Both the position numbers and the translations under genes were made by a program. Below are positions 20,451 through 46,363 of a DNA stretch of 64,000 bases, in pieces. Origin of the DNA: an uncultured Chloroflexia bacterium (GTDB lineage: Bacteria; Chloroflexota; Limnocylindria; QHBO01); contig CAWEDO010000002.1 in assembly GCA_963807915.1 (NCBI GenBank), positions 297,502 through 361,501 of the forward strand, given 5' to 3'. The first letter of the stretch is position 1. Each line of letters starts with the position of its first letter. The notes under the pieces were generated by a model, which saw only the letters and a program-made list of their open reading frames with translations, did no database searches and was not told where the DNA came from.

Positions 20451-20462
20451 TTCTGGCCCCCG

Positions 20463-28623: not shown

Positions 28624-29541
28624 CTACCCGGCCACCAGCGCGTCGTGGATCACGCGTGCGTCGTACAGCAGCATCCCATCCAGTGTCTCGGCTGCTGATC
28701 CCGGCGGCCCCAGGGAATCGGTGTAGAGCGGCTGGTCAACCACCCGCGCGTCGGTCTCGTCGGCGATTGCCCTGGCCAGCTTCGGATTCACCGCCGACTC
28801 GCTGAAGATCGCCGTCACGGCCTCCCGCCGGATCGTGTCGGCGAGCGCGGCGAGCTGGGCGGGGTTCGGCTCGGCGGAGACGTCGAGGCTCGGAAAGACC
28901 GACCCCACGAAGCGGAGGCCGTACTCGGCCAGGAAGTAGCCGATCGCGTCGTGGTTGGTCACGATGCCGCGCCGCTCGGCGGGGATCTCCGCCATGAGGC
29001 GACGGATCTCGACGTCGGCTGACTCCAGGCGGGCGACATAGGTGGCCGCACGATCGGCAAACTGAGCCGCGAGCTCGGGCCGAGCGGCCGACAGCGCGGC
29101 TTGCACGTTCTCGACCATGCGGCTGGCGTTCGGGGCGGTCAGCCAATAGTGCGGATCGACCCCGCCGGCGTCCTCGGCATCGTCCGGTGCGCGCAGCGCG
29201 ACGCCCTCGCTCATGTCCCGCAGGCGATCCCTGCCGCCAAGGGTGGCCAGCGCCCCCTCCAGCCAGACCTCCAGCCCGGCTCCGCTCTCGAGGATCAGGT
29301 CGCTGCGCTCGATGGCCGCGGCCACGGCCGTGGTGATCTCGAATTCGTGCGCCTCGGCGCCCGGCTTCAGCAGGACGGTGAGCGCGATGTCGTCGCCGCC
29401 CACCTCGCGCGCCGCCTCGCCCACCTGGGTCGTGGTCGCGACAACCCGCAGGCGGCCGTCGCTCGGGGACGGGGTGCCCGCATCGCAGCCGCCGGCCGCG
29501 ACCAGCAGCCCGCAGGCCAGCAGGAGCAGGAGCCGTCTCAC
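28624..29541 (-). CDS. znuA: metal (Zn/Mn) ABC transporter substrate-binding lipoprotein, ZnuA/TroA family
   Basis: TroA-fold sequence with metal-site residues (EAHEFE, DPHYWL, NHDAIGYF). Signal/lipobox LLLLLACGLLVAAGGC. GTG 29539-29541 forms a GTGA overlap with the zur stop, whereas the ATG at 29589 would overlap zur by 52 nt. Confidence 0.8.
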   Translation of the reverse strand: MRRLLLLLACGLLVAAGGCDAGTPSPSDGRLRVVATTTQVGEAAREVGGDDIALTVLLKPGAEAHEFEITTAVAAAIERSDLILESGAGLEVWLEGALATLGGRDRLRDMSEGVALRAPDDAEDAGGVDPHYWLTAPNASRMVENVQAALSAARPELAAQFADRAATYVARLESADVEIRRLMAEIPAERRGIVTNHDAIGYFLAEYGLRFVGSVFPSLDVSAEPNPAQLAALADTIRREAVTAIFSESAVNPKLARAIADETDARVVDQPLYTDSLGPPGSAAETLDGMLLYDARVIHDALVAG

Positions 29542-29993
29542 CCCGCTCGTGCCGCGGTCGTGGCGTCCTCCGCTCGGCAGGTCGCGCAACGGCCGTAGAA
29601 GTCGAGCCGGGCATCGTCGATCTCGAAGCCCATCTCACTGGCGAGCCGCTCGGCGATGGGGGTCACATAGGCCTCGTCGATCTCCTCGACCCGCCCGCAG
29701 CGCGTGCAGGCGATGTGGTGATGGTGGGCCGGCAGGCAGGCGACATAGGCGTAGACGTGGCCATCGAGCTCGAGGCGCCTCGCGACGCCGGCCTCGACCA
29801 GGGTCTCGAGCGTGCGGAAGACCGTGGCCCGCCCGATCCCCGGCTCGCGTCGCCGGAGGCTGCGGAAGAGCTGCTCGGCCGTCAGGCGGCGACCGCTGGC
29901 GGCCAGCGCGTTGGCGACGAGCAGGCGCTGCCGCGTGACACGCTCGCCTGCGGCCGTGAGGCGATCAGCCGCCCCAAGCCGGATTCGATCCAT
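29538..29993 (-). CDS. zur: Fur-family zinc uptake regulator (Zur-like)
   Basis: Fur HTH (RVTRQRLLVANALAASGRRLTAEQL) with metal-site HHHH and CxxC..CxxC motifs. Genetic linkage to znuACB. Confidence 0.8.
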   Translation of the reverse strand: MDRIRLGAADRLTAAGERVTRQRLLVANALAASGRRLTAEQLFRSLRRREPGIGRATVFRTLETLVEAGVARRLELDGHVYAYVACLPAHHHHIACTRCGRVEEIDEAYVTPIAERLASEMGFEIDDARLDFYGRCATCRAEDATTAARAG

Positions 29994-30026
29994 GGCCAGA
30001 GGCTAGCACAGGCGAGACTGAGTATC

Positions 30027-30839
30027 ATGTCCGCCGTGAGCGGCACCGTAAGCGACGCACCGAGCGGCCTGGTCCTGCGTGGCGTCAGCGCCGGCTACGG
30101 TTCCGGCCTGGTGCTCCAGGACGCCAACCTGGCCATCCCCCCCGGCACCCTGGTCGGCGTGATCGGGCCGAATGGCTCGGGCAAGAGCACCCTCCTCAAG
30201 TCGATCCTGGGCCTCGCCCCGGTGATGACCGGCACCGTCCTCCTCGACGGCCGTCCGATCGCCGAGCAGCGGGACCGACTGGCCTACGTGCCGCAGCGTG
30301 AGGCGGTCGACTGGAGCTTCCCGATCAGCGCGGAGCAGGTGGTCATGATGGGTCGCTACCCGCGGGTCGGCTGGCTCCGCCTCCCCGGCGCGAGCGACGC
30401 CGCCGCGGTCCGCGATGCGCTGGAGCGCGTCGCCATGGCCGACCACGCATCCAACCAGATCGGGGCGCTCTCGGGTGGACAGCAGCAGCGCGTCTTCCTG
30501 GCTCGGGCCCTGGTGCAGGAGGCATCGGTCCTGCTGCTGGACGAGCCGATGACCGGCGTCGACCAGACGACCGAGCAGCTGATCGTCGGCCTTCTGCAGG
30601 AGCTGCGAGACAACGGGACCACGATCCTGCATGCGACCCACGACCTCGAGTCCGCGTCGGAGATCTCCGACGAGCTCTGCTTCGTCAACCGTCGCGTCAT
30701 CGCCTACGGCCCACCCCTGGAGACCTTCACCCCGCCGATCCTGCACGCCACCTTCGGCGGGGAGCTGCTGATCGTCCACGAGGGGGAGCACACGCACGTC
30801 CATGGCGGCGGCCATCATCACGGGCCGGATCACGAATGA
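30027..30839 (+). CDS. znuC: metal ABC transporter ATP-binding protein (ZnuC type)
   Basis: Walker A GPNGSGKST, LSGGQQQRVFLARAL signature and Walker B LLLDEP. ATG 30027 is the first start after the shadow N-terminus of ORF 29715. Confidence 0.85.
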   Translation: MSAVSGTVSDAPSGLVLRGVSAGYGSGLVLQDANLAIPPGTLVGVIGPNGSGKSTLLKSILGLAPVMTGTVLLDGRPIAEQRDRLAYVPQREAVDWSFPISAEQVVMMGRYPRVGWLRLPGASDAAAVRDALERVAMADHASNQIGALSGGQQQRVFLARALVQEASVLLLDEPMTGVDQTTEQLIVGLLQELRDNGTTILHATHDLESASEISDELCFVNRRVIAYGPPLETFTPPILHATFGGELLIVHEGEHTHVHGGGHHHGPDHE

Positions 30840-31744
30840 GCTGGCTCACCGATCCGCTGGGTTACGACTTCGTGCTCCGCGCGCTCGCCGAGGTGGTGGT
30901 GATGGGAGCCACCTGCGGGGCGATCGGGGCGTACGTGATCGTGCGGCGCCTGGCCTTCATCGGCGACGCCATCAGCCACGCCGTCTTCCCCGGCATCGTC
31001 CTCGCCTACCTGGCTGGCCTGAGCATCTTTGGCGGTGCGCTCGTGGCGGGCCTCATGACCGCGTTCGGCATCGCGCTGGTCGCCCGTGGCGGCCGGATCC
31101 GGGAGGACGCCGCCATCGGCATCTTCTTCGCCGCCGCCTTCGCCCTGGGGATCGTGCTGATCAGCACGCGCCAGACGTTCCAGGGCGACCTGACCGGCTT
31201 CCTGATCGGCAACCTGCAGGGCGTCTCCGCCGGTGACATCGCGATCAGCGCGGCAGTGGGGCTGGCGATCATCGTCGTGCTCGCCGCGGTCCACAAGGAG
31301 CTGGTGCTCGTCTCGTTCGACCGCACCCTGGCATCGGCCCTGGGGTACCCGGTCTTCGCGCTTGACGCCTTGCTGCTCGTGATCCTGACCGTGACCATCG
31401 TGGTCAGCATCCAGGCGGTCGGCATCATCCTGGTGCTGGCGATGCTCGTCACGCCCGCGGCGACGGCTCGGCTGCTGGTCGACCGCTTCGTGCCGATGCT
31501 GGCGCTGGGCTCAGTCCTTGGCGCCGCGGTCGGGGTGGCCGGCTACTTCATCTCGTTCCACCTGGGGACCGCCTCCGGCGGCACGATCGTGCTGTTGGCG
31601 ACGGCCCTCTTCGTGGTGGCCTTCGTCGCCAGCCCAACACACGGGCTGCTCGGACACCGGCTGCGTCGCCATCCGCAGCACGCCGGCGTCGCTCCGGCTG
31701 TCGATCCCCCGGCCGGACATGAGCACGGTGCTCAGGACGTCTGA
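30836..31744 (+). CDS. znuB: metal ABC transporter permease (ZnuB type)
   Basis: ATGA overlap with znuC. ABC-3 family TM topology. Confidence 0.85.
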   Translation: MSWLTDPLGYDFVLRALAEVVVMGATCGAIGAYVIVRRLAFIGDAISHAVFPGIVLAYLAGLSIFGGALVAGLMTAFGIALVARGGRIREDAAIGIFFAAAFALGIVLISTRQTFQGDLTGFLIGNLQGVSAGDIAISAAVGLAIIVVLAAVHKELVLVSFDRTLASALGYPVFALDALLLVILTVTIVVSIQAVGIILVLAMLVTPAATARLLVDRFVPMLALGSVLGAAVGVAGYFISFHLGTASGGTIVLLATALFVVAFVASPTHGLLGHRLRRHPQHAGVAPAVDPPAGHEHGAQDV

Positions 31745-31854: not shown

Positions 31855-32346
31855 ATGCTGTCACTCCCTGCGACATCCCACGAGCACCACCAGGAGATCG
31901 AGCGGCACCTTGACCGGCTCCCGCAACTCGCCGACATGATCGGTCGTTCGACGCCAGAGGCCTTCTCCAGTGCATTCCAGCAGGAGTGCCGCTTCATCGT
32001 GAGCCAGCTGGTGCCTCACATGGAGGCGATCGAGACGAGCCTGTACGGGCGGCTCGAGCAGATCATGGACGGGCGCCACTCGATGGCCCCAATGCGCCGG
32101 GAACATGAGCAGCTGCGCGGGCTGTTCGCGTCACTCTGCCGGTACCGCGAGCTCGCAGCCGACGAAGGGCTGACAGACGCGGACGAGATCGGCCTGCGGC
32201 GCGTGCTCTTCCGGTTCTACGCGATGATGAAGGTCCACCTGACAGAAGAGGATCTTTACCTCGGCGTGCTGGACCGAAACCTCACCGCCGATGAAAAGGA
32301 TGCGCTCGCCAGGGGCATCGACCATGCCGGTGCGACGCCGCTCTAG
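31855..32346 (+). CDS. hemerythrin HHE cation-binding domain protein
   Basis: His/Glu ligand pattern (HHQEIERHL, HMEAIE, HSMAPMRREHEQL, KVHLTEED). Paralogue of 32877-33371. Confidence 0.7.
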   Translation: MLSLPATSHEHHQEIERHLDRLPQLADMIGRSTPEAFSSAFQQECRFIVSQLVPHMEAIETSLYGRLEQIMDGRHSMAPMRREHEQLRGLFASLCRYRELAADEGLTDADEIGLRRVLFRFYAMMKVHLTEEDLYLGVLDRNLTADEKDALARGIDHAGATPL

Positions 32347-32361: not shown

Positions 32362-32691
32362 TCAGCCTGTGTTCCGGGGCGCGCTGACCGCCTCGAGATA
32401 CCGCGCGTTGAACTCGCCGATGAGCCGGGCTCGCTCCTTCATCACGGCCGCCCACGCGTCGATCGCGGCGTAGCCGGCATCGGTCAGGACGTAGTTGCGA
32501 CGTTGTGGTCCGACCGGTTCCGCCGACCACGACGAGGTGACCTGGCCGGCCGCTTCGAGGTCGCGCAGGGTCCGATAGACCTGACCGATGTCCACCGAGC
32601 CTTCGGTGATGCCCATCTCCTCGAGCTGGGCGGTGATGGCGTAGCCGTGCGCACCCCCGGCCGCGAGGAGGACGAGCACGAACGGCTCCAT
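32362..32691 (-). CDS. PadR-family transcriptional regulator
   Basis: MEPFVLVLLAAGGAHGYAITAQLEEMGITEGSVDIGQVYRTLRDLEAAGQV is a PadR winged helix. ATG 32691 is preferred over ORF start 32865. Confidence 0.75.
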   Translation of the reverse strand: MEPFVLVLLAAGGAHGYAITAQLEEMGITEGSVDIGQVYRTLRDLEAAGQVTSSWSAEPVGPQRRNYVLTDAGYAAIDAWAAVMKERARLIGEFNARYLEAVSAPRNTG

Positions 32692-32876
32692 CCATCGGTG
32701 ACGCCCACCCAGAGGCGCCCAGCCGCGATGGACGGGAATGCCCGCCGCATCGTGATCCGATGCGACGGCGTCCATGTCCGCCACGGCCGGAGTCCCACGG
32801 CCCTCGTTTGGAGCACCCATCTGCCTTGAGAGCATAGGCGCTTCAGACATGCAGATCGGGATCAAGCCGATGCGAG

Positions 32877-33371
32877 TCAGAGCGCCGTGATGCCGCTGTG
32901 GTCCATCGCCGCGGCGAGCTTCTCCGCGCTCTCGGGCGAGGCACCACGTTCGATGATCCTGAGATAGAGCTGCTCCTCCGCGAGGTGGACCTTGAGGATG
33001 CTGTAGAGGCGGAAGATGACGCGGCGCAGTGCGACCGTCTCGTTCGTCTGCAGGGGTCCCACCTCGAGCCGGTGCTGCAACCGGACGAGCTCCGCCACAA
33101 GCAGGCGGATCTCATCGTGCTCGCGGCGCATCGGCGTCATCGAATGGCGGTTCTGGAGCATGCGCTCCAGCTCGGCATACAGGGTCTTCTCGGCCGTCTC
33201 CATGTGCGGAAGGAGCAGGCCTTCGAGAAAGGCGGCCACCTCTGCCAGGTGCGGCCGGAGCTCGGCAACGGGGGCGGAACCGACCAGGTCACCCACCGCA
33301 GGCATCGAGTCCAGGTGGTGGGTCAGCCGTTCGTGGTGTTCCAGGGAAACGTGGGTCAGGCTCGCGGTCAT
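32877..33371 (-). CDS. hemerythrin HHE cation-binding domain protein
   Basis: 164 aa from MTASLTH (ATG verified 33369-33371). Shares the His/Glu ligand pattern with 31855-32346. The upstream 170 codons of the ORF are shadow. Confidence 0.7.
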   Translation of the reverse strand: MTASLTHVSLEHHERLTHHLDSMPAVGDLVGSAPVAELRPHLAEVAAFLEGLLLPHMETAEKTLYAELERMLQNRHSMTPMRREHDEIRLLVAELVRLQHRLEVGPLQTNETVALRRVIFRLYSILKVHLAEEQLYLRIIERGASPESAEKLAAAMDHSGITAL

Positions 33372-33415: not shown

Positions 33416-34609
33416 TCAGCCATTCGCGCCCCCTTCCGTGACCCCGTCGTTCGGGGTGCCCGCCAGCGCCAGGAAGAACAGGGCGACCGGCCGGTAGACC
33501 GCGTGGGCGAGTTTCATGAACGGGGCCAGGATCACGAGCTCCATGGCGATCGCCACGTGGAACAGGAACACCCAGTAGCCCCAGGCCGGAACACCCGGGA
33601 GGTAGAGAGCCAGCTCCAGGCCGAAGCCGGTCACGCCGGTGATCCAGACGAGCGCCAGGAGGGTCCAGTCCGCGCTGGTCGAGTGGCGCACGGAGCGTTC
33701 GATGCCCCGATAGCGCTGCAGGATGAGCATCGTTGCGCCGTACACCAGCAGGATCCCCGCCGCCGTGCCGAGCAGGCGGACGGGATACCAGATCGGGACC
33801 GGCGTACCGGTTGCCTTGATCCCCACGAGCGCGAGTCCGTAGTCGAGGATCGTCGCCGCGAGCAGGCCCAGGAAGCCCCACATCGTGGCCGCGTGGATGA
33901 ACCAGCGGCGAAGGAACCAGGGTTGCTGGATCGCGTCCGCATCGCAGTCCTCGCGATAGCGGCGCTGGCCAAGCGTCTCAACCGCGACTGCGCTCCAGAG
34001 CGCGCGAATCGTGCGGAACAATGCGCTGCGGCCGCCAAGGGTGGAACGCAGCGTCACGCCCCCGGCGCGGCCGACGGCCCTGGCCATGGTGACGACGCCG
34101 ATGAGACCGGCGGCGAAGACGATGACCATGATCCCGATCCCCGCGTTATGGATCAGCTCCTCGGGGATGAAGCCGAAGATGTCGAGCGAGGCCGCACTCT
34201 GCGCGCCGTGGCCCGCATACATGAAGAGGGCGAAGAGCGCCGCCAGGGCGACCGCGATCACGGTCCCGATCACGGGTCGGGTGTACATCGTTCGAGCCAG
34301 CCCGGTCCGGTCGTAGTTGGCGATCGCGTAGCGCCGCGCGGCCGCCATGAACTCGCTCGGCTCCGCCTGGGTCGGGCATGACTCGGAGCACTCCCCGCAG
34401 GCATAGCAGGTCCACAGCTCCTTGCTCGACAGGAGCTGGTCGCGCAGGCCCACCTGTGCGAGGCGGATCAACCGCCGGGGGAAGGTGGCGTCGTCGCTGA
34501 CCAGGGGGCAGGTCGCCGTGCAGGTCCCGCAGCTGAAGCAGGCCGACACGTCCGCCGCGCCGTAGCGCTTGATGTCGGCGAGCAGGCCGAGCTGTACGGT
34601 GGCGGTCAT
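33416..34609 (-). CDS. QmoC-like membrane subunit: HdrC-type di-[4Fe-4S] domain fused to an HdrE/NarI-type heme-b membrane domain
   Basis: Two CxxCxxCxxxCP motifs (CFSCGTCTATCP, CYACGECSESCP), then five or six TM helices with conserved His (HAATMWGF, FHVAIAM, KLAHAVYRP) typical of di-heme b NarI/HdrE/DsrM. Confidence 0.75.
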   Translation of the reverse strand: MTATVQLGLLADIKRYGAADVSACFSCGTCTATCPLVSDDATFPRRLIRLAQVGLRDQLLSSKELWTCYACGECSESCPTQAEPSEFMAAARRYAIANYDRTGLARTMYTRPVIGTVIAVALAALFALFMYAGHGAQSAASLDIFGFIPEELIHNAGIGIMVIVFAAGLIGVVTMARAVGRAGGVTLRSTLGGRSALFRTIRALWSAVAVETLGQRRYREDCDADAIQQPWFLRRWFIHAATMWGFLGLLAATILDYGLALVGIKATGTPVPIWYPVRLLGTAAGILLVYGATMLILQRYRGIERSVRHSTSADWTLLALVWITGVTGFGLELALYLPGVPAWGYWVFLFHVAIAMELVILAPFMKLAHAVYRPVALFFLALAGTPNDGVTEGGANG

Positions 34610-34866
34610 GAGGGCTCCTTCGCAGTCTGCCTGACGATCGCTTCGTAGCGGAAGTAGCCATCGTCGGTGGCGCCCTTGACCTCCTGGACGTGCCCGTAGC
34701 GGCGCATGCCCATCACCCAGAAGACGACCTCGTGGGTGGGCACGGCGAGCTCCGCGGCGATCTCCGGGATGGTCCGCGCTCCTCCGTGCAGGAAGGCCAG
34801 GATCTGGGCGCGCATGACCGGCTCCTCACGGACGATCTCGCGCAGGGCTCGATTCGGGGCATTCAT
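34606..34866 (-). CDS. small winged-helix-like protein (86 aa), function unknown
   Basis: ATGA-coupled between the hdrA-like and qmoC-like genes. MNAPNRALREIVREEPVMRAQILAFLHGGARTIPEIAAELAVPTHEVVFWV suggests a wHTH. Start ATG verified at 34864-34866. Confidence 0.55.
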   Translation of the reverse strand: MNAPNRALREIVREEPVMRAQILAFLHGGARTIPEIAAELAVPTHEVVFWVMGMRRYGHVQEVKGATDDGYFRYEAIVRQTAKEPS

Positions 34867-36605
34867 GCGATCGGCACCTCCAGGAGGCTGTCGATCATGG
34901 AGGTGACCTGGGCGTTGGTGTAGCCGAGCAGGTCGATGGCGCCCTCCGGGCAGACGGGGACGCAGCCACCGCAGCTCTTGCATCCGGTTGCGCTGATGGT
35001 CGCCACCGCCTTGCCATCCACGGTCGCCATCTCGATGGCGGCATAGGGACAGGCGGTGATGCACAGCTCGCAGCCCGTGCAGGTGTCGGTGTCCACGATC
35101 GCCACCAGCGGGTCGAGCTCGGCGAAGCCCTTCTTGAGGATCACCGCGCTCTGCGTGACGGCGGCAAGGCCCGACGCAACGCTCTCGCTCGAGTTCCTGG
35201 GACCCTGGCAGGCGCCGGCGATGTACACCCCGTCGACCATGGTCTCGACCGGGCGCAGCTTGGGATGGATCTCGTTGAAGAAGCCGTCCTTCCCCAGGGG
35301 GAGCTTGAGGAGGCCATTCAGCTCCTCGTTCCTGCGCGGGATCATCCCGGTGACCAGCACCACGAGGTCTGCCGGGATGGCGATCTCCTCCGTTCCGGTC
35401 AGGAGGTCGCGCACGGTGACCACCAGGCGGCCAGAGCCATCCTGGGCGACGGCCGGTGGTGCATCGTCGGCGAACTTGAGGTAGACCGATCCGAGCTCGC
35501 GCGAGGTGGTGTACATCGGCTCGAACTTGCCGTAGGTGCGCATGTCCCGGTAGAGGTGGTACTGGTGCACTTGCGCGTCCCGGGAGGAGACCTGGATCGA
35601 GGCGGCGACGGTCGCCGCGCAGCAGTAGCGCGAGCAGTACTGGTTGCCGTCGGGCTTGTCCGCGGGCTCGCGGCTGCCGACGCAGTAGACGTACACGACG
35701 CTCTCGACCGGCTTGCCGTGGAACTCCAGGCGGCCTGCCGAACGGTCGATCATCTGCTTGAACTCCGGCAGGGTCACCACCCCGTCGATCCCGTAGCCGT
35801 ACTCGCCCACCTCCGGCTGGTAGGCATCGAAGCCGGTGGCGACGATGATCGAGCCAACCTCGACGGTGAGCGTCTCGCCGCCCGGTCCGCCCAGGCGGAT
35901 GCCGGCGGTGTAGTTGCCGAAGCTGCCGGACTTGCTGATCAGCTCGGCTCCGGTGAAGACGTTGATCGCGGGGCGCTGCTCGATGCCCTCGATCAGCTCC
36001 GCGATGAGCGCTCGGCCATTCTTGCCGGTCGGGTACATCTCCTCGAACCCGCCGACCCAGCCGCCGAGCGTGGTCTCGCGCTCGACCAGGAAGACGCCGA
36101 GGCCGATGTCGGCCAGCCCGATGGCCGCGCGCAGCCCTGCGACGCCGCCGCCCACCACCAGCGTCTTCTGCGTCGTCTCGACGACGATCGGCTCCAGTGG
36201 TTCGGTCAGGCGGGTGCGGGCGATGCCGGCCTTGACCAGGCCGATGACCTTGTTGGTGGTGGCCTGCAGGTCATCCGATTGGACCCACGAGGCCTGCTCG
36301 CGCACGTTGACCTGGGTGTATTCGTACGGGTTGAGGCCGGCCCGATTGGCCACCGCCCGGAATGTGACGACGTGGAGCTTCGGCGAGCAGGACGCGACCA
36401 CCATGCCGTCGAGCTGCTGCTGCTCGATGTCGCGCTCCATCTCCCCCTGGCCCGAATCCGAGCAGGCGAACATCATCTGCCGGGCCACCACCACGCCCGG
36501 CTCAGCCTCGGCCGCGGCGACGACCTGGTCGATGTCGACGTGGTCGGAGATGTTGCCGCCGCAGTGGCAGACGTAGACCCCGATCCGGCGCTCGGTCTCG
36601 CTCAT
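34863..36605 (-). CDS. hdrA: heterodisulfide reductase subunit A (HdrA)-like FAD/FeS flavoprotein
   Basis: N-terminal IGVYVCHCGGNIS cluster motif, FAD-binding VVGGGVAGLRAA, Cys-rich inserted domain (CSRYCC) and C-terminal 2x[4Fe-4S] (CTGCELCITACP, CKSCGGCVPVCP). ATG 36605 is ATGA-coupled to the upstream gene, and the remaining 380 codons of ORF 34863-37751 are shadow. Confidence 0.8.
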   Translation of the reverse strand: MSETERRIGVYVCHCGGNISDHVDIDQVVAAAEAEPGVVVARQMMFACSDSGQGEMERDIEQQQLDGMVVASCSPKLHVVTFRAVANRAGLNPYEYTQVNVREQASWVQSDDLQATTNKVIGLVKAGIARTRLTEPLEPIVVETTQKTLVVGGGVAGLRAAIGLADIGLGVFLVERETTLGGWVGGFEEMYPTGKNGRALIAELIEGIEQRPAINVFTGAELISKSGSFGNYTAGIRLGGPGGETLTVEVGSIIVATGFDAYQPEVGEYGYGIDGVVTLPEFKQMIDRSAGRLEFHGKPVESVVYVYCVGSREPADKPDGNQYCSRYCCAATVAASIQVSSRDAQVHQYHLYRDMRTYGKFEPMYTTSRELGSVYLKFADDAPPAVAQDGSGRLVVTVRDLLTGTEEIAIPADLVVLVTGMIPRRNEELNGLLKLPLGKDGFFNEIHPKLRPVETMVDGVYIAGACQGPRNSSESVASGLAAVTQSAVILKKGFAELDPLVAIVDTDTCTGCELCITACPYAAIEMATVDGKAVATISATGCKSCGGCVPVCPEGAIDLLGYTNAQVTSMIDSLLEVPIA

Positions 36606-39310
36606 GCCAGGGCCTTCGCGCGCTCGAGGTAGGCGGCAACCTGGGCGACCGTCGAGCCGGCATGCAGGATCGAATCGGCGATGTCCTTGGCGCCCGATGC
36701 GGCACCGGCGACGTACACGCCGTCGATGCTCGTCTGGCCCGGGTTGGCGTCCTCGTCGGTCTCGGCGACATACGAGTACTCGTCCGTCGAGAGGGCCCCC
36801 ATCGGGAAGAGGGCCTGGGCGTCGCTGTTGGGCTGAACGCCCACCGCGAGCACGACGAGGTCGTACTCCGCTTCGACGATCTGACCGCCGTGCTCGATGT
36901 CCTCGTAGCGCAGGACCAGGTCGCCGTTGTCCTTCTCGGTGATCTTGGCCACGCGTCCCTTGACGTAGTTGGCGCCCATCGCCTTGGCCTGCTCGTAGAA
37001 CTCGTCGTAGCGCTTCCCGGGGGCACGGATGTCCATGTAGTGGACCGTCACGTCGGCCACCGGGAGGGCACCCATGATCAGCTGGTTCTGCTTGATCGAG
37101 TACATGCAGCAGAACCGCGAGCAGAGCGGGTTTCCGACGGTTTCGTCGCGCGATCCGGTGCAGAGGACGTAGGCGATGCGATCGGGCACCTTGCCGTCCC
37201 CCGGCCGCAGGATGGTGTTGAACGGCCGCGTCGGGGCCAGCAGGCGGTCCATCTGCATGCCGGTGATCACGTTCTTGAAGGTGCCGTAGCCGTATTCCGG
37301 CTTCAGGTCGGCGGCGAACAGCTTGAAGCCGGTCGCGACCACGACCGCGCCGACCTCGACATCGAGAACCTCGTCGCGAGCCCGCAGGTCGATGCACTGG
37401 TCCACGGGACAGGCGTCGACGCACTCGCCGCATTCGGAGCAGACGCCGCAGTCCAGGCACAGGCCGGCGCCGCGGTGGGCCTCCTCCTCTGTCATCGGCA
37501 GCTCGACCTCGCGGAAGTCGGTCGGGGCATCGCTCAGCACCTCGCTCGGACCTTCGGCCAGCGCCATGCGGTACGCCTTCTGGCGAGCGAGGACCTCTGT
37601 CTTGTCGACGACCGGGAGCCGCAGGTCGAAGCCATCGAGCTCCAGGCCATTGATCCAGCGATCGATCATGTGGGCTGCGCGCTGGCCCTGCCCCGTTGCC
37701 CGGGTGATGTCCGAGGCGCCCGAGACGACGTCGCCCGCGGCGAAGAGCCACGGCACGGCGCTCTGCAGCGTGCCCGGATCGACAGCGGCTCTTCCGCCGG
37801 CATCGGCCGTGACCTGGGCGCCAAAACCCTCGGTATCGGGCGCCATTCCGATCGCCGCGATGACGACATCGCCGGCGATCTCGAAGTCAAGGCCCGGGAT
37901 CGGCTCTGGCCGGCCGCGGCCGGTCGGCCCCGCGACGGATGGAGCCATGCGGGTGCAGCGAAGGGCGCGAGCCGCCCCGTTGCCGTCATCGAGGACTTCC
38001 GCTGGCGCCGCCTCGAAGACGAAGTGGACGCCTTCCGTCTCGGTGTCATCGGCCTCGACGTGGTGGGCCGGCATCTCGGCGCGGCTGCGCCGATAGACCA
38101 CGGTGACGTCGCGCGCACCCAGCCGGCGGGCGGTCCGTGCGGTGTCCATCGCGACGTTGCCGCCGCCGATGACCAGGACCCTCTTGCCCGCCAGGTCGAC
38201 GGGCTCGCCGAGCTTCACCCCACGCAGGAAGTCGACACCGCTGAGCACGCCATCGAGCTGGTCGCCGGGGATGCCGAGCTTCGTGGAGAGCGGCGTGCCG
38301 GTCGCCAGGAGGACGGCTTCGTAGCCCTCGGCGTGGAGCGCCTCGAGATCCGTCACCGGCGCGCTGGTGGCGATCTCGACGCCGAGCGCAGTGACGTTGG
38401 CGATGTCCTGCTCGACGACCTTCGCGGGCAGGCGATATCCGGGGATGGCCAGCCGCAGGAAGCCGCCGGCCTTCGGCGCGGCCTCGAAGATCTTGACCGC
38501 ATAGCCGCGGCGGGCCAGCTGCCAGGCCGCGGTCAGGCCGGTCGGTCCGGACCCGATGATGGCCACGCGGTGACCGTTCGGCTCCGGGATCGCGACTCCG
38601 GGGCCATCGAACTTCTCGTAGTGGATGTCGGCGATGAATCGCTTGAGGCGGCGGATCGGGATCGGTCCTTCGAGGGATCCTCGGGTGCAGTCGACCTCGC
38701 ACGGCGCGTAGCAGGCGCGACCCAGGGTGCCGACCAGCGGCGTCGCGTCGAGCACCAGCTGGAACGCCTTCTCGTACTCGCCACTGCGGATGAGCGAAAC
38801 GTAGCCGTGGGCCTGGATGCCGGCCGGACAGGCGTAGGAGCAGGGCGAGGACCCGGCTCGGTCGATGACCGCCTTCTTGGGCACCGCCTGGGGGAACGCG
38901 ATGTAGGCGGCTCGGCGCTGGACCATGTCGGCGTTGAACTGGTCGGGAACGGCCACGGTGCAGGCCGTCTCGCACAGCTGGCAGCCGGTGCAGGTCAGCT
39001 CGTTGACGAACCGCGCCTTGCGCGTGACCTTTGCCCGGAAGTGCCCATCGGCACCACGCTTGATCCCGTCGACCTCGCTGTAGGTCATGGTGGTGACGTT
39101 GGGGTGGTGGATCGACGCAGCCATCTTGGGGGTCGAGATGCAGCTGGCGCAGTCGAGGGTGGGGAACACCTTGCTGAGCAGGATCATCTTCCCGCCCACG
39201 CTGGCCTCCTTCTCGACCAGCAGCACCTTGTAGCCCATGTCGCCGAGCTTCAGCGCGGACTCCATCCCGCCGATGCCCGCGCCGACGACCATGACGTCGT
39301 AGTCGGTCAC
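36602..39310 (-). CDS. HdrA-like flavoprotein with inserted GltD/NfnB-type NAD(P)H-binding domain (HdrL-like)
   Basis: HdrA N-terminus (MTDYDVMVVGAGIGGMESALKLG..DCASC), ferredoxin motif (CTGCQLCETAC), GltD-type segment (CSYACPAG..VAIIGSGPTGLTAAWQLARRGYAVKIFE..RVLVIGGGNVAMDTARTARRLGA), second ferredoxin (CLDCGVCSECGECVDACP) and HdrA C-terminal FAD half (NPLCSRFCC..DGVYVAGAASG). Confidence 0.75.
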   Translation of the reverse strand: MTDYDVMVVGAGIGGMESALKLGDMGYKVLLVEKEASVGGKMILLSKVFPTLDCASCISTPKMAASIHHPNVTTMTYSEVDGIKRGADGHFRAKVTRKARFVNELTCTGCQLCETACTVAVPDQFNADMVQRRAAYIAFPQAVPKKAVIDRAGSSPCSYACPAGIQAHGYVSLIRSGEYEKAFQLVLDATPLVGTLGRACYAPCEVDCTRGSLEGPIPIRRLKRFIADIHYEKFDGPGVAIPEPNGHRVAIIGSGPTGLTAAWQLARRGYAVKIFEAAPKAGGFLRLAIPGYRLPAKVVEQDIANVTALGVEIATSAPVTDLEALHAEGYEAVLLATGTPLSTKLGIPGDQLDGVLSGVDFLRGVKLGEPVDLAGKRVLVIGGGNVAMDTARTARRLGARDVTVVYRRSRAEMPAHHVEADDTETEGVHFVFEAAPAEVLDDGNGAARALRCTRMAPSVAGPTGRGRPEPIPGLDFEIAGDVVIAAIGMAPDTEGFGAQVTADAGGRAAVDPGTLQSAVPWLFAAGDVVSGASDITRATGQGQRAAHMIDRWINGLELDGFDLRLPVVDKTEVLARQKAYRMALAEGPSEVLSDAPTDFREVELPMTEEEAHRGAGLCLDCGVCSECGECVDACPVDQCIDLRARDEVLDVEVGAVVVATGFKLFAADLKPEYGYGTFKNVITGMQMDRLLAPTRPFNTILRPGDGKVPDRIAYVLCTGSRDETVGNPLCSRFCCMYSIKQNQLIMGALPVADVTVHYMDIRAPGKRYDEFYEQAKAMGANYVKGRVAKITEKDNGDLVLRYEDIEHGGQIVEAEYDLVVLAVGVQPNSDAQALFPMGALSTDEYSYVAETDEDANPGQTSIDGVYVAGAASGAKDIADSILHAGSTVAQVAAYLERAKALA

Positions 39311-39753
39311 GAGGTCACCGCCGACGGTCCGAGTGCGATGAGCGCCTGGCCGAACTGTTGCACGTGTCGCGTGAACGGCTCGGCGCAGACGGAGCAGATG
39401 GCGGCCATCTTCAGCCGCTGGGGGTCGAGCCCTGCCTGTGTCAGGAGCGCCTGGGCCTGGCCCACGATCTTCGACGCCCGCGTCGAGCAGTCAGACAGGT
39501 AGGCGCACTCGTCGCCGTCCGAAGCGATGAAGACGCCGTCGAATCCGTGCTCGATGGCGTGGAAGATCCAGCTCGGCCGGATTCCGCTGGTGCAGGGCAT
39601 GCTGATGACCACGACACCAGGCGAGTAGCTCATGTGCGAGCTGCCCGCCAGGTCGATCCCGGGGTCCGAGATGTTGTTGGTGGAGAAGACGAGGATCCGC
39701 GGAACGAATGCGCGTTCCGCGCCCTGACGCTCCGCCGGGGCGATCGTGGTCAT
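39307..39753 (-). CDS. MvhD/FlpD-like [2Fe-2S] hydrogenase delta-subunit-type electron-transfer protein
   Basis: ILVFSTNNISDPGIDLAG..VVISMPCTSGIRPSWIFHAIEHGFDGVFIASDGDECAYLSDC..AAICSVCAEP matches PF02662. Has a 4-nt overlap with the HdrL-like gene. Confidence 0.75.
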   Translation of the reverse strand: MTTIAPAERQGAERAFVPRILVFSTNNISDPGIDLAGSSHMSYSPGVVVISMPCTSGIRPSWIFHAIEHGFDGVFIASDGDECAYLSDCSTRASKIVGQAQALLTQAGLDPQRLKMAAICSVCAEPFTRHVQQFGQALIALGPSAVTS

Positions 39754-39766
39754 CAGGCTGTGGCGG

Positions 39767-40042
39767 CTACTTCTGGCGCGTCACGAAGGTGCGCTCGTAG
39801 CCCTCGCCCGGCAGGAAGCCAAGGAAGGTATGGCCGACCTTCGTCGACCAGGCCTCGATGTCGCCCTTGGTGGCGGGGTCGCTGGACCAGATCTCGATGA
39901 CCTGGCCGACCTGGACCGTGCCCATGGCCTTCTTGGCCTCGAGGAGCGGTCCGGGGCATGCGCTGCCGCGCGCGTCGACGACCTTGGCCGTCTCGAGCGC
40001 CGAGAGGTCGGTGTCGCTGAGTGGGGTGGTGATGGTCATCAT
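39767..40042 (-). CDS. tusA: TusA-family sulfurtransferase
   Basis: CPGP motif in DARGSACPGPLLEAKKAM. The ORF starts at 40078, but the ATG at 40042 (MMTITT) gives a typical TusA length. Confidence 0.7.
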   Translation of the reverse strand: MMTITTPLSDTDLSALETAKVVDARGSACPGPLLEAKKAMGTVQVGQVIEIWSSDPATKGDIEAWSTKVGHTFLGFLPGEGYERTFVTRQK

Positions 40043-40108: not shown

Positions 40109-40474
40109 TCAGTAGACGAGGGTGTTCGTGGCCGAAGTCACCTCCGCGACGAAGCGAGCCGCCGCCACGATCTCGGCGCCGGGAATGAGCGAGTCCGCGA
40201 TGCCACGGCTCTTCACGCAGGGCCCGCAGGCCAGCAGGGTGCCGCCGAGCTCGCGGAAGTCATCGAGCAGCTTCGTCAGCGGGGGGAACTCGCGCGCCTG
40301 GACCGTCTCTGCCTCCCCCTGGTGAACCAGGCAGACGCCGTCGGCCTGGAGTCCGATGACGACAGCGACGTCCGACGCCAGGGCGGCGCAGGCCATGACG
40401 AACGGGATGGTCGCTCGCTCCGGGTCTTCTGGTCCGTGGGTCGCCATGATCACGAGCCTCTGCTGCTCGGCCAT
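40109..40474 (-). CDS. DsrE/DsrF-family sulfur-relay protein
   Basis: 121 aa, LVIMATHGPEDPERATIPFVMA..LLACGPCVKSRGI with a conserved Cys, matching the DsrE-like (COG1553/2210) fold. Confidence 0.65.
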   Translation of the reverse strand: MAEQQRLVIMATHGPEDPERATIPFVMACAALASDVAVVIGLQADGVCLVHQGEAETVQAREFPPLTKLLDDFRELGGTLLACGPCVKSRGIADSLIPGAEIVAAARFVAEVTSATNTLVY

Positions 40475-40504: not shown

Positions 40505-40912
40505 TCAGATGAAGAGGATCTGGCCGTCGTCCGCGGCCGCGAGGAAGGCGGCGATGCCGCCGGCGTCGTCGACGATTGGATCAAGGTGCTCGGCGTTCAG
40601 GCCGAGGGTGCTGAGCGATCCTGAGCAGGCGCGAATGGTCACCTCGCCGAGCTCCTTCGCCGTTCGCAGGGTCTCGAGCCACTGGGTCTCCCCAACGTGG
40701 CCGACCGGCTCGTTGAACCTGGGGCGTGCCGCGTCATAGGCGAGGCCGTGATCATTTGTGATGCGGTCGGCGCGGAAGGCGTCCAGGGCCCAGTACATCA
40801 GCAGGATGCTGACCGGCGTGCCCATGGCAGCCGCACCGGAAGCGATCGTCGCCGCCGCATGGAGCTTGTCGTCGGTCCCCGAGAAGAGGACGATTGAGAG
40901 TCCGTTGCTCAC
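40505..40912 (-). CDS. DsrE/DsrF-like (COG2210) sulfur-relay protein
   Basis: Paralogue of 22725-23138 (LFSGTDDKLHAA..IRACSGSLS..GQILFI). GTG 40910-40912 forms a GTGA overlap with the upstream arsR-family stop, and the ORF extends to 40993. Confidence 0.65.
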   Translation of the reverse strand: MSNGLSIVLFSGTDDKLHAAATIASGAAAMGTPVSILLMYWALDAFRADRITNDHGLAYDAARPRFNEPVGHVGETQWLETLRTAKELGEVTIRACSGSLSTLGLNAEHLDPIVDDAGGIAAFLAAADDGQILFI

Positions 40913-41283
40913 CGATGACCTTCCTGACTGGAGACGAGCGGGAGGGGTGCAGGGTCGTGAAATGCGGCCGCCAGTTCGCCCAACCTCGACCATCGGCGAA
41001 CGAGGACTTCACGCATGAGAGCGCACGCGGCCAGGATCTGCGGGTCGCTGAGCTGATAGCTCACCGTTCTGCCGTCGCGGACTGCATCGACAAGGCCGAC
41101 CGCCCGCATGGCTCCGAGATGCTGGGAGGCAGCCGCCTGGGTAAGCCCCAGGGCACGTGCCACCTCATTGACCTCGCGCGGTCGCTCGCCCAGGAGATGG
41201 AGGATCCGCAGGCGATGCGCGCTGGCCAACGACCGGAGCAGCGACGTTTCGAGCTCGTCGATATCGAGAGTGGCGTCTGGCAT
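40909..41283 (-). CDS. ArsR/SmtB-family transcriptional regulator
   Basis: HTH LASAHRLRILHLLGERPREVNEVARALGLTQAAASQHLGAMRAVGLV with a single Cys (ILAACALM). Paralogue of 23145-23495. Preceded by an AT-rich inverted repeat. Confidence 0.85.
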   Translation of the reverse strand: MPDATLDIDELETSLLRSLASAHRLRILHLLGERPREVNEVARALGLTQAAASQHLGAMRAVGLVDAVRDGRTVSYQLSDPQILAACALMREVLVRRWSRLGELAAAFHDPAPLPLVSSQEGHR

Positions 41284-44480: not shown

Positions 44481-45140
44481 CTAGACCAGGCGGCGGTCCG
44501 AGGCCCAGCGGGTCAGCTCGTATCGGTTCGAGAGCTGGAGCTTGCGAAGCACGGCTGAGACATGCGTCTCGACGGTCTTGACGCTGATGTGGAGCTCCGA
44601 GGCGACCTCCTTGTAGGTGTAGCCGCGCGCGATGAAGCGCAGCGTCTCGCGCTCGCGCGCGGTCAGGAGGTCGAGCTCGGGGTCGATCGGCTGGTCCGAC
44701 TCGCTCGCGAACGCGTCGAGCACGAAGCCGGCCAGGCGCGGCGAGAAGACGACGTCTCCGTCGTGGATGCGCTGCACGGCGCCCACCAGCTCGTCAGCCG
44801 AGATGGACTTCGTCACGTAGCCGCGCGCGCCAGCGCGAATGATGCCGATCACGTCCTCCGCAGCGTCCGACACCGAGAGGGCCAGGAACTGCGCCTTCGA
44901 GCCGGCTGCGCGCACCCCCTCGATCACGCCGCGCCCGCCGCCGGCCGGCATGTGCACGTCCAGCAAGACCACATCCGGCTCGGCCTGGAGAATCCCCGCC
45001 ACCGCCTCCTCGACCGTTCCGGCATCGCCCACGATCCGGCAGCTGCGGCTCAGCTCGGAGCGGACGCCTGAGCGAAAGAGCTCGTGGTCGTCGACCACGA
45101 AGACGCTGACGCCTGAGGCGACGCGGGTCGGCGCGGTCAT
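44481..45140 (-). CDS. two-component response regulator, NarL/LuxR family
   Basis: REC domain (VFVVDDHELFRSGV..D..K) and C-terminal LuxR HTH (LTARERETLRFIARGYTYKEVASELHISVKTVETHVSAVLRKL). Confidence 0.9.
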   Translation of the reverse strand: MTAPTRVASGVSVFVVDDHELFRSGVRSELSRSCRIVGDAGTVEEAVAGILQAEPDVVLLDVHMPAGGGRGVIEGVRAAGSKAQFLALSVSDAAEDVIGIIRAGARGYVTKSISADELVGAVQRIHDGDVVFSPRLAGFVLDAFASESDQPIDPELDLLTARERETLRFIARGYTYKEVASELHISVKTVETHVSAVLRKLQLSNRYELTRWASDRRLV

Positions 45141-46363
45141 GGGGCCCTCCTCGGAAGCCGCATCACGATCTCGGTCCCTGCACCCGGCCGACTGTTGACC
45201 ACGGCGCTGCCGCCGTGCCGCTCCATGCGGCCGACGATCGAGTCGGCGATCCCCCGCCGGTCGGCCGCGACAGCCCCCGGGTCAAAGCCGGGACCGAGGT
45301 CGCGGACATACGCGCTGATCGCCTCGTCCTCGACCTCGACGTAGACCGACACCTCGGTCGCGCCCGAATGCCGCGCGGCGTTGAGGGTGGCCTCGCCGAG
45401 CGCGGCGACGAGGGCGGTGGCGTGGTCGTCGAGGTCGGCGTCACCGACCACGATCGCCTCGACCTTCACCTGCTGCTCCCGCTCGACCCGCCCGGCCATG
45501 GCATCCACCGCGTCGCGCAGTCGTGCCCCGGCGAGCGCGGGCGCTCGCCCGTACAGCCACGCGCGCAGTTCGCGCTCCTGGGTGCGGGCCAGGCTCGCCA
45601 TCTCCCGCTGCTCCGGCGAGCGCTGGATGAGTGCCAGCGTCTGCAGGACCGAGTCATGCAGGTGAGCCGCCATCTCGGCGCGCGCCTCTGTCCGGACCCG
45701 TTGGCTCCGCTCCTCGATGAGGTCGCGCCCCATGCTCCACGCCCATGGCGCGACGATCAGCGCCAGCCCGCCGATCGCCACGAAGACTGCCAGGAGGGTG
45801 CTGCCCGCCGCCCGCAGCGAGGTGTTGGCGAGCAGGAAGACGATCATTGCGGCGAGGATGAGCAGCGACCCGACCAGCATCCGCGAGCTGAAGACGCGAC
45901 CGGTGAGGACCGCATCAAGCGGCCAACGCGCGCCGCGCTCCTCTCCGGATCGGGCCCAGAGGATGGCGAAGCCGATGCCGGCGAGGGTGACCGGCCAGGC
46001 GAGCTCCTCTCCAAACCAGAAGCCGGTGACGAACAGCAGGAGCATGACCCCCGCCAGGATCAGCGCCGCACCGAGCGCCTGGCCCAACGTCGGTCGGATC
46101 AGGATCCGCGCACGAGGCCGGGTCGCTCCCTCGAGCGCCTCCTGTGGCGCGAGGAGCCAGGCCAGAAGGTAGACAACAAGGCCGAACCCTGCTGCCAGGG
46201 CCAGGACCACGAACGCAATGCGCACCACGATCGGCTCGATGCCGAGGTGGTGGCCGATCCCGGCAGCCACGCCACCGATGACGCGGTCGCTCCGGCTGCG
46301 TTCGAGCCGCGGGCGCGCGGCATTGGCCACCTCGCGGCCGCGTCGAACGCCAACCTGCGCCAT
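45137..46363 (-). CDS. PspC-domain sensor histidine kinase (HisKA_3/HATPase_c)
   Basis: N-terminal PspC motif (RSRSDRVIGGVAAGIGHHLGIEPIVVRIAFVVL), TM segments, H-box (AAHLHDSVLQTLALIQ) and ATPase G-boxes. ATG 46363 is preferred over ORF start 46495. Confidence 0.85.
   Translation of the reverse strand: MAQVGVRRGREVANAARPRLERSRSDRVIGGVAAGIGHHLGIEPIVVRIAFVVLALAAGFGLVVYLLAWLLAPQEALEGATRPRARILIRPTLGQALGAALILAGVMLLLFVTGFWFGEELAWPVTLAGIGFAILWARSGEERGARWPLDAVLTGRVFSSRMLVGSLLILAAMIVFLLANTSLRAAGSTLLAVFVAIGGLALIVAPWAWSMGRDLIEERSQRVRTEARAEMAAHLHDSVLQTLALIQRSPEQREMASLARTQERELRAWLYGRAPALAGARLRDAVDAMAGRVEREQQVKVEAIVVGDADLDDHATALVAALGEATLNAARHSGATEVSVYVEVEDEAISAYVRDLGPGFDPGAVAADRRGIADSIVGRMERHGGSAVVNSRPGAGTEIVMRLPRRAP

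Follow-up and report, generated by a model that had tools for sequence, protein, structure and literature searches.

A split HdrL-type flavoprotein with a GltD-like insert, encoded in a candidate Qmo-like operon of uncultured Chloroflexota

Only four families of complexes are known to carry out flavin-based electron bifurcation, and those built on the flavoprotein HdrA are one of them (PMC5861303, PMC11829005). Here we describe a 902-residue HdrA homologue encoded at 36602..39310 (reverse strand) in a 64,000-nucleotide stretch of an uncultured Chloroflexia bacterium (assembly GCA_963807915.1, contig CAWEDO010000002.1, positions 297,502 to 361,501; hereafter the window), together with the operon in which it lies. 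In this protein, the flavin adenine dinucleotide (FAD) domain of HdrA is interrupted by a unit of the GltD type, GltD being the small subunit of glutamate synthase. The sequence context considered throughout is the 64-kb window and ±8-10 kb around relatives of the gene, with a 95%-identical orthologue and its locus (P0004/L083) serving as the annotated reference neighbourhood.

The protein architecture is already established, and a GltD-interrupted HdrA is no new protein type. HdrL was defined in 2009 as a 'heterodisulfide reductase/glutamate synthase fusion' (PMC2702500). The HdrABC/HdrL system of Syntrophobacter fumaroxidans has the same protein layout (PMC5947623), and the ~1,490-aa HdrA of Moorella thermoacetica shares this two-part layout (PMC9430772) as a member of an NADH-dependent MetFV-HdrABC-MvhD complex (PMC5861303). 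The HdrL proteins of Desulfobacterium autotrophicum and S. fumaroxidans, the Moorella HdrA and the protein described here are alike in having a GltD-interrupted HdrA FAD domain and an adjacent MvhD; the HdrL-type identity proposed in an initial annotation of this DNA therefore holds. The second unit of the fused proteins, which has a C-terminal ferredoxin domain and, at its N-terminus, an MvhD-like domain, and no inserted ferredoxin domain, likewise has its counterpart at this locus (PMC2702500, PMC5947623, PMC9430772). A GltD insert was also reported in 2025 for archaeal type III HdrA, in which, as in the present protein, the GltD domain lies in or beside the inserted-ferredoxin domain (PMC12054007). 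In type I HdrA the same cluster path is the ferredoxin exit; in type III, the proposal is that the insert blocks the access of ferredoxin and gives the clusters a new role, carrying electrons from NAD(P)H to the flavin (PMC12054007).

The locus departs from these systems in several respects. Whereas HdrL and Moorella HdrA are fused proteins of about 1,480-1,530 aa, here two translationally coupled genes encode 902 and 580 aa. In the place of HdrBC stands a QmoC-like membrane protein, and the genetic context consists of ArsR, DsrE and TusA instead of MetFV, formate dehydrogenase or DsrAB. The 902-aa protein has no selenocysteine, with Cys at both positions 54 and 57. Its host is a Limnocylindria-type Chloroflexota of high guanine-cytosine (GC) content, unlike the strictly anaerobic Desulfobacterota/Firmicutes that carry the fused forms; Limnocylindria are not regarded as strict anaerobes. 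The nine archaeal type III sequences derive from type I HdrA; they are single proteins that occur together with mvhADG or several hdr genes and were predicted to be NAD-specific, whereas the protein described here is bacterial, lacks the N- and C-terminal domains of HdrA, and has an NADPH-type loop and a GxGxxA motif. Our literature searches found no description of the split form, of a QmoC-like anchor replacing HdrBC, of an obligatory TusA/DsrE head, or of an occurrence in Limnocylindria-type Chloroflexota. The comparison suggests that the novelty is that of a variant: a split HdrL with a putative quinone link through a QmoC-like cytochrome b and a TusA/DsrE head in soil Chloroflexota.

The gene is a single open reading frame (ORF) that starts at a GTG and runs for 902 codons without an internal stop. 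Its GC content at the three codon positions (0.70/0.48/0.88) fits that of genuine genes in a window of ~69% GC. Given that high GC gives rise to very long spurious ORFs over real genes, ORF length alone is no evidence of a gene here. Indeed, an overlapping ORF of 946 aa on the opposite strand (36662..39502, +) translates into Arg/Gly/Asp-rich nonsense, as does the 5' part of a 962-aa ORF (34863..37751, -) where it overlaps the gene. These spurious frames would make it conceivable that the 902-aa ORF is itself an artefact, be it falsely joined genes, a pseudogene or a chance product of high-GC sequence. This is refuted by its uninterrupted frame and third-position GC, by a 902-aa protein in public data that is 100% identical to it, by more than 100 full-length orthologues of 900-950 aa, and by diverse proteins that align co-linearly with residues 6-898; an artefact has practically no probability left. 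The same evidence disposes of two ORFs separated by an unnoticed stop, which the initial annotation had named as a way in which its description could fail. The start codon overlaps the stop of the upstream MvhD gene by 4 bp, and the stop codon overlaps the ATG of the downstream gene by 4 bp.

The alignment to the HdrA of M. thermolithotrophicus (5odc_A) places the domain boundaries at residues 151/152 and 621/622. Residues 1-151 (38858..39310, -) comprise the first part of the thioredoxin-reductase-like FAD domain of HdrA, with GAGIGG at 10-15 and the motif D-C54-A-S-C57, followed by a first ferredoxin motif; residues 6-151 align to 5odc_A 146-290 (E 7.7e-40). Residues 622-902 plus the stop codon (36602..37447, -) contain a second ferredoxin motif and the rest of the FAD domain, and 622-893 align to 5odc_A 291-563 (E 3.4e-60). 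Thus, ~470 residues (152-621; 37448..38857, -) are inserted between two consecutive HdrA residues, 290 and 291, at a point that lies between the two CxxCxxCxxxC motifs (C107-C117 and C624-C634) of the inserted-ferredoxin domain of HdrA. Since a ferredoxin motif precedes the insert as well as following it, the insert splits this domain mid-way. The layout from Pfam and NCBIfam is the same: an HdrA-type FAD start (1 to ~125), a GltD/DPD-type unit and the C-terminal half of HdrA. The HdrA profile NF040770 (2.2e-136 for the whole protein) has its best stretch at 618-897, covering the ferredoxin motif at 618-634 and the HdrA C-terminal half. The protein has no counterpart of the N-terminal domain (1-145) or the C-terminal ferredoxin domain (568-654) of 5odc_A, and its NCBIfam HdrA scores of 317-456 bits are far under the cut-offs of 1100-1400. 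Its HdrA parts are far closer to methanogen HdrA (4e-99) than to sHdrA (6tjr_A, 6e-39).

The inserted segment is of the GltD/NfnB type by every comparison made. Pfam assigns Fer4_20 (PF14691) to residues 154-232 (6.6e-17) and Pyr_redox_2 (PF07992) to 248-542 (8e-46), and NCBIfam PRK12771 matches residues 128-647 (3e-136). The two Rossmann motifs are GSGPTG at 253-258 for FAD and GGGNVA at 382-387 for NAD(P)H; three GxGxx(G/A) sites are present across this protein and its 580-aa neighbour. The best solved relatives are NfnA of NfnABC (9bov_A, 7e-105) and StnC (8oh5_C, about 1e-94), whose residues 102-574 align with the insert at about 40% identity over about 475 residues. Free NfnB and GltD proteins give weaker matches (4ylf_B 4e-74, 5jca_L 6e-63, 2vdc_G 2e-49). 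A Foldseek search returned the same ranking, with a target-normalised TM-score of about 0.73 to NfnB/GltD. It was run with an AF2 model built on a 35-sequence alignment (74-95% identity), with pLDDT 69.9 and pTM 0.53 overall and pLDDT below 50 in every Fe-S loop; the model was used for this fold search only, and not for inter-domain geometry or cluster distances. The E-values for domain content are far beyond chance. The reading order given in the initial annotation (an HdrA FAD segment with DCASC motif, a GltD-like [4Fe-4S]/FAD/NAD(P)H unit, a ferredoxin motif and the HdrA C-terminal half) is thus recovered in full, and the profile, PDB and fold matches dispel the concern that the central segment might not be GltD/NfnB-like.

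The insert is most similar to modules that are themselves inserted in other proteins. It starts at 'PCxxACP' and ends at 'CLxCG', as in StnC, and does not keep the co-linear N-terminus of the NfnB/GltD family with its contiguous CxxC...CxxxCP. Instead, the N-terminal segment of free NfnB ('DFxEV...CLxCP') aligns to residues 590-635, at the C-terminal end of the insert. The module is hence circularly permuted relative to NfnB, a change that would bring its two ends together, as insertion requires. StnC of Sporomusa ovata StnABC (8oh5) and NfnA of NfnABC/Bfu (9bov, 9n5u) have the same permuted order and are also inserted in a host domain, which is NuoG/Fdh-like in those proteins and HdrA here. 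In StnC/NfnABC the GltD domain is a non-bifurcating NADPH input that feeds a chain of clusters (PMC10482914, PMC11829005). The downstream bifurcating centre in those systems is an FMN/cluster site in HydBC-like subunits, unlike in the present protein, and StnC C114 is replaced by Ala167. The operon contains neither an NfnA-like nor a GltB-like gene. The dinucleotide loop V-Y406-R-R-S-R (405-410), together with GGGNVA, matches the YRR(S/T)R loop of the NADPH-using StnC and NfnA, from which NADPH is the predicted nucleotide. In 14-16 of the 43 diverse co-linear homologues (30-48% identity) used here for all conservation counts, the loop is of the NADH-type C-L-E.

The gene immediately downstream (34863..36605, -) encodes a 580-aa protein that aligns to 5odc_A over residues 3-233 and 315-648 and overlaps its neighbours by 4 bp on both sides. 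It has an N-terminal 4-Cys domain, an FAD domain with C-x17-C-x3-CC and a C-terminal 2x[4Fe-4S] ferredoxin domain; it contains neither the inserted ferredoxin domain nor the DCxxC motif, and carries K and A at the positions of Mt-HdrA E356 and K409. In other words, it supplies the domains absent from the 902-aa protein, namely the N-terminal cluster domain and the C-terminal ferredoxin domain. A fused, 1,495-aa HdrL-type protein of Syntrophaceae (P0126) covers both genes: its residues 8-913 align to the 902-aa protein (42% identity) and its residues 934-1487 to the 580-aa neighbour (38% identity, 2e-117). Given this fused form and the complementary domain content, we conclude that the two genes represent one split HdrL. 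The initial annotation was right that a second HdrA homologue adjoins the first; its description of that homologue as a canonical HdrA, separate from the HdrL, does not stand. Stand-alone forms of ~900 aa occur in other lineages too, and a gene pair of ~900 and ~570-680 aa recurs in unrelated contexts. This recurrence, the Rosetta-stone relation to the fused protein and the 4-bp overlaps argue that the two proteins act as a unit, and judging from their sequences they most likely pair as the two halves of fused HdrL do.

All cofactor assignments were made from motifs. Among the 19 cluster-ligating Cys residues of the 902-aa protein, 15 are invariant in the 43 homologues, and the least conserved, C734, is retained in 37. 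Two ferredoxin-domain clusters are predicted from C107/110/113/117, which are all invariant, and C624/627/630/634. Within the GltD module, the Cys motifs predict a distal [4Fe-4S] cluster held by C157/C161 and C618/C621, as well as a flavin-proximal [4Fe-4S] cluster with C200/C204/C208 and, as predicted fourth ligand, K223. The latter occupies the position of StnC K170, and is Lys in 36 of the 43 homologues; StnC K170 ligates its cluster, whereas NfnB has Glu at that position (PMC10482914). The cluster of the HdrA FAD domain is predicted from C717-x12-C730-x3-C734-C735, a motif conserved in the homologues. C621 and C624 are only three residues apart, and the two halves of the distal-cluster motif directly abut the two ferredoxin motifs, so that the distal GltD cluster and a ferredoxin-domain cluster are probably neighbours. 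We infer from these motifs a wire of four clusters that would run from the GltD flavin to the HdrA flavin. This agrees with the entry of NAD(P)H into an HdrA flavin that the initial annotation envisaged, and with the proposal for archaeal type III HdrA (PMC12054007).

The residues around the HdrA flavin were compared with two positions of Mt-HdrA, E356 and K409, that have been used as markers to discriminate bifurcating from non-bifurcating HdrA flavins (PMC9430772). The 902-aa protein has D688 at the E356 position, where the homologues have E (37 of 43) or D (3), and K740 at the K409 position, which is K in 40 of 43. It also keeps C54 and C57 of the Cys197 region, each of which is Cys in 40 homologues. 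Given that the GltD flavin is non-bifurcating in the closest solved relatives, any bifurcation would be expected at the HdrA flavin.

The two halves lie in an operon on the reverse strand whose first gene encodes an ArsR-family regulator (40909..41283; Pfam HTH_5, 9.8e-12), found at the same position in the reference locus. It is followed by a DsrE_2-family protein of 135 aa (40505..40912; Pfam DrsE_2, 1.2e-11), a DsrE-family protein of 121 aa (40109..40474; Pfam DsrE, 1.1e-14), a TusA sulfur carrier with the CPGP active-site motif (39767..40042; Pfam TusA, 1.5e-17) and an MvhD of 148 aa (39307..39753; Pfam FlpD, 2.5e-28; NCBIfam VhuD/HdrA2 C-terminal region). This MvhD, a [2Fe-2S] electron connector, is free-standing and directly beside the HdrL-like gene, as the initial annotation had said. 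Downstream of the split HdrL come a small ORF of 86 aa (34606..34866), a QmoC-like membrane subunit of 397 aa (33416..34609), a hemerythrin-domain protein (32877..33371; Pfam) and a PadR regulator (32362..32865; Pfam). Overlaps of 4 bp join ArsR to DsrE_2, and join MvhD, the two HdrL halves, the 86-aa ORF and the QmoC-like gene into an unbroken series. A scan of 31.5-42.5 kb for promoters and terminators gave no more than chance. The 86-aa ORF belongs to no known family, having no Pfam, NCBIfam or PDB match, and yet counterparts of 86, 78 and 94 aa occupy the same position in L083 and in two outgroup loci (L081 and L089, respectively). Its place resembles that of the 'hyp' gene of sHdr operons.

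The arrangement is conserved. Among the best 80 loci (70-95% identical), out of at least 569 confirmed candidates, TusA is kept in all 80, MvhD in 79, the HdrA-like half in 75, the QmoC-like gene in 74, the DsrE_2 gene in 61, the hemerythrin gene in 60, PadR in 58 and the second DsrE gene in 57. The labels of these loci are Limnocylindria/-ales, 'Chloroflexia', Chloroflexi and a few Anaerolineaceae, with one Steroidobacteraceae, and the public annotations of the genes read only 'FAD-dependent oxidoreductase', 'heterodisulfide reductase subunit A' or 'ferredoxin'. The statement in the initial annotation that HdrL-type proteins come mainly from anaerobic Deltaproteobacteria is outdated: they also occur in Moorella, Dehalogenimonas, Caldisericota, archaea and hundreds of Chloroflexota genomes.

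The QmoC-like protein matches NCBIfam qmoC (NF038018) over positions 4-360 of 360, with 6.9e-60 and 203 bits. It combines an HdrC-like 2x[4Fe-4S] domain with about six transmembrane helices, and has eight Cys as well as the transmembrane His residues H154, H239, H351 and H369. Across 70 aligned sequences (the protein and 69 orthologues), neither these four His nor C68-C78 vary, and only one sequence departs from C24-C34. This is the HdrC + HdrE/NarI-type arrangement described for QmoC (PMC3333476). The likeness extends further: QmoABC, the quinone-interacting membrane-bound oxidoreductase of sulfate reducers and some sulfur oxidisers, comprises two HdrA-like flavoproteins, an MvhD module and a subunit with HdrC-like FeS and dihaem cytochrome b parts, and this operon encodes two HdrA-like proteins, an MvhD and a candidate for such a subunit. 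Proposals for Qmo already include a third redox partner and the confurcation of electrons with those of a reductant in the cytoplasm, an NADH dehydrogenase being one of the candidates (PMC3333476). In some Qmo lineages QmoC is replaced by HdrBC-type proteins, a replacement mirrored by the outgroup locus L081. Unlike in QmoABC, the NADPH module here is built into the QmoA-like subunit and MvhD is not fused to QmoB. Assignment to QmoABC itself was rejected on account of the score of 203 bits against a cut-off of 300, the absence of apr/sat among the window ORFs scanned and the free-standing MvhD.

Our preferred reading, which we hold to be rather probable, is that the operon encodes a Qmo-like, membrane-anchored complex built around the NADPH-binding half of a split HdrL ('type III HdrA'), linking NADPH, an HdrA flavin and the quinone pool. 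The proposed subunits are MvhD, the 902-aa protein, the 580-aa HdrA-like protein, the 86-aa protein and the QmoC-like FeS/dihaem-b membrane subunit. NADPH would reduce the GltD flavin, and single electrons would then cross the four clusters to the HdrA flavin of the 902-aa protein. There the path would fork. In one branch, electrons would leave by way of the C717 cluster, enter the QmoC-like subunit at its HdrC-like domain and pass its haems to end at menaquinone; in the other, the second HdrA half and MvhD would convey them to a third partner. This partner could be ferredoxin, which would make the system a ferredoxin reductase driven by NADPH and pulled by the quinone, with a logic analogous to that of FixABCX/EtfABCX, or it could be carrier-bound sulfur, to which the third port is probably tied. 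The sequence supports the wiring, and both the bifurcation and the substrate are putative.

Several observations weigh against this complex. The QmoC-like score is below its NCBIfam cut-off, and no aprAB or sat was found among the window ORFs scanned or within ±10 kb around L083, which speaks against an orthodox Qmo. The E356 position is occupied by D, and how diagnostic this criterion is beyond the methanogens is uncertain. In every Fe-S loop the AF2 model is poor. P0121, the closest outgroup, has the NADH-type C-L-E loop, so the nucleotide preference is not fixed in the clade. As to a sulfur substrate, the operon has no CCG/HdrB catalytic subunit, and thus no evident site for sulfur chemistry; TusA and DsrE could also be co-regulated without being substrate.

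Some of these points would also suit a linear, non-bifurcating NADPH:menaquinone oxidoreductase, or a quinol:NADP+ reductase driven by the proton motive force. Electrons would then run from the GltD flavin through the clusters and HdrA flavin(s) to the QmoC-like haems, with MvhD and the second HdrA half being structural or vestigial. The non-bifurcating nature of the GltD-type flavin in the closest solved relatives (PMC10482914), the lack of bifurcation markers in the second HdrA half, the Asp at the E356 position and the absence of an operon-encoded third-partner enzyme are all compatible with such a route. However, such an enzyme would need far less than what this conserved operon of 11 genes offers, namely three flavin sites, some nine [4Fe-4S] clusters and one [2Fe-2S] cluster. 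Furthermore, C54/C57 and K740 are kept, MvhD is present in 79 of the 80 loci, and fused homologues operate in bifurcation-type complexes. We therefore consider a linear enzyme unlikely.

The more distant relatives bear on another alternative, implicit in the initial annotation, in which the system would be a soluble HdrABC-type heterodisulfide reductase that bifurcates electrons from NAD(P)H to ferredoxin and a disulfide. The outgroup locus with 49% identity (P0121; L081) keeps the order TusA-MvhD-HdrL-HdrA-small ORF and ends in HdrC + HdrB. A second outgroup (P0124, 46% identity; L089) has the same core, preceded by a 557-aa rhodanese, and ends in a soluble HdrD-like Fer4+CCG protein. Partners in still more distant relatives are HdrCB with MetF/MetV in Syntrophaceae, an HdrD-like protein near CdhD in Dehalogenimonas, and tungsten-type aldehyde oxidoreductases. 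The HdrC + HdrB of the closest outgroup, the identical protein architecture in the Moorella MetFV-HdrABC-MvhD and HdrABC/HdrL systems, and a two-subunit 2-oxoacid:ferredoxin oxidoreductase lying 5-9 kb away in the window would all agree with a soluble reductase. Nevertheless, no HdrB/CCG-domain ORF, MetF/MetV or formate dehydrogenase was found in the operon or among the window ORFs scanned, and the membrane-bound QmoC-like protein takes the place of HdrBC in 74 of the 80 loci, making a soluble heterodisulfide reductase very improbable here.

Taken as a whole, the relatives differ greatly in their partners; evidently, the HdrL-like module plugs into enzyme systems of very different kinds as their NAD(P)H unit. 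In two loci of ~39-41% identity (L087 and L091), an HdrL-like gene of ~900 aa comes after genes for a tungsten-type aldehyde:ferredoxin oxidoreductase and for a polyferredoxin, and the cluster includes a ThiS-like gene; in L087, the genes that come next encode an HdrA partner of ~570 aa, MvhD and an NfnA/PyrK-like subunit.

A link to sulfur is suggested by the head of the operon and by a second cassette with a paralogous head, which lies on the same strand at a distance of about 13 kb. This cassette encodes an ArsR (23145-23495, -), a DsrE_2 (22725-23138, -) and a TusA (22468-22704, -) that are 48%, 53% and 40% identical, respectively, to those of the Hdr operon. They are followed by a DsrE-family protein of 185 aa (21902-22459, -), a further TusA (21628-21873, -) and a gene resembling type III sulfide:quinone reductase (SQR; 20463-21668, -). 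The latter matches NF049943 with 1e-103 and 347 bits, under the cut-off of 525 of this profile, which describes a selenoprotein subtype. The paralogous cassette ties the Hdr/Qmo-like operon circumstantially to sulfide/sulfane-sulfur metabolism and the quinone pool. Together with the co-transcription of the operon with ArsR, two DsrE proteins and TusA, it suggests carrier-bound sulfane sulfur as the third partner of the proposed complex, or as its setting. The 2-oxoacid/pyruvate:ferredoxin oxidoreductase sits between the two sulfur cassettes (fused alpha-gamma subunit, 25699-28023, -; delta-beta subunit with a Fer4 domain, 23641-25398, -), a ferredoxin-dependent enzyme amid otherwise aerobic-looking genes.

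The sulfur link can be taken further, to a dedicated sulfur enzyme that would reduce or oxidise TusA/DsrE-borne sulfane sulfur by means of NADPH and the quinone pool, downstream of the nearby SQR. Such an enzyme would be kin to sHdr or SudAB/NSR in function and not in sequence, and the idea overlaps with the Qmo-like complex preferred here. It draws on the retention of TusA in all 80 loci and both nearest outgroups, in one of which the 557-aa rhodanese replaces DsrE; on the HdrB or HdrD CCG domains of the outgroups; on the SQR-like end of the ArsR-DsrE2-TusA cassette; and on the transfer of sulfur from TusA and DsrE to sHdr (PMC11094781). Against it, the version in the window lacks a CCG domain, a lipoate-binding protein and anything else recognisable as a site that reacts with sulfur, and its HdrA parts are, as noted above, closer to methanogen HdrA than to sHdrA. 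The ArsR of the operon has a single Cys, unlike persulfide sensors of the SqrR/BigR type, which have two, and its candidacy as such a sensor is accordingly not supported. A dedicated sulfur enzyme is thus a tentative possibility, one that we would not expect to prevail.

Assignment to sHdr was also considered. The sHdr order, dsrE-tusA-hdrC1B1A-hyp-hdrC2B2, resembles that of the outgroup locus L081, which has dsrE-tusA, hdr genes, a small ORF behind hdrA, hdrC and hdrB. To our knowledge, sHdr systems lack MvhD; they also have no GltD insert, and neither HdrB1/B2 nor lipoate-binding proteins were found in the window. With no HdrB or LbpA and a much weaker match to sHdrA, the assignment was rejected.

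A more far-reaching form of the Qmo-like complex would be a Qmo/Hdr hybrid that serves soil Chloroflexota as a hitherto undescribed respiratory module. With a built-in site for NADPH as cytoplasmic co-reductant, it would couple the quinone pool, NADP(H) and TusA/DsrE sulfane sulfur by flavin-based confurcation or bifurcation, in tandem with the SQR cassette. We regard this extended version as speculative and, in its entirety, improbable. Were it true, nature would have supplied a tractable example of the mechanism with three partners that has long been proposed, and never demonstrated, for QmoABC. The Qmo-like complex, if it works as proposed, would open to direct experiment the question of how the oxidation of quinol is coupled to a co-reductant of the cytoplasm in Qmo-type complexes, and would extend Hdr-type chemistry to organisms not regarded as strict anaerobes. 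The variant is present in hundreds of genomes of an abundant, largely uncultured lineage of soil and freshwater.

Directly downstream of the QmoC-like gene, two hemerythrin-domain genes (32877-33371, -, and 31855-32346, +) flank PadR; the hemerythrins and PadR may serve as a sensor of O2/NO or iron for an oxygen-sensitive Fe-S complex. Beyond them lies a Zn/Mn uptake set, with ZnuA (28624-29634, -), an ABC ATPase within 29382-30839 (+) and an ORF (30836-31744, +) that corresponds by position to the ABC-3 permease of L083. The neighbourhood in L083 (95% identical) also includes Fur, with CopC/CopD on the other side of the operon. Given these Zn/Mn, Fur and CopC/CopD neighbours, the operon sits among metal-homeostasis genes.

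No Rfam family reached threshold anywhere in the 64-kb window. Its only tRNA, tRNA-Leu(CAG) (20360-20448, +), lies between the SQR-like gene and a gene for a P-type cation ATPase (stop-to-stop frame 17946-20462, -). On the other side of the Hdr operon, a histidine kinase with a PspC domain (45137-46495, -), a response regulator of the LuxR type (44481-45140, -) and a second, divergent PspC-domain protein (46173-47606, +) look like an envelope-stress two-component module.

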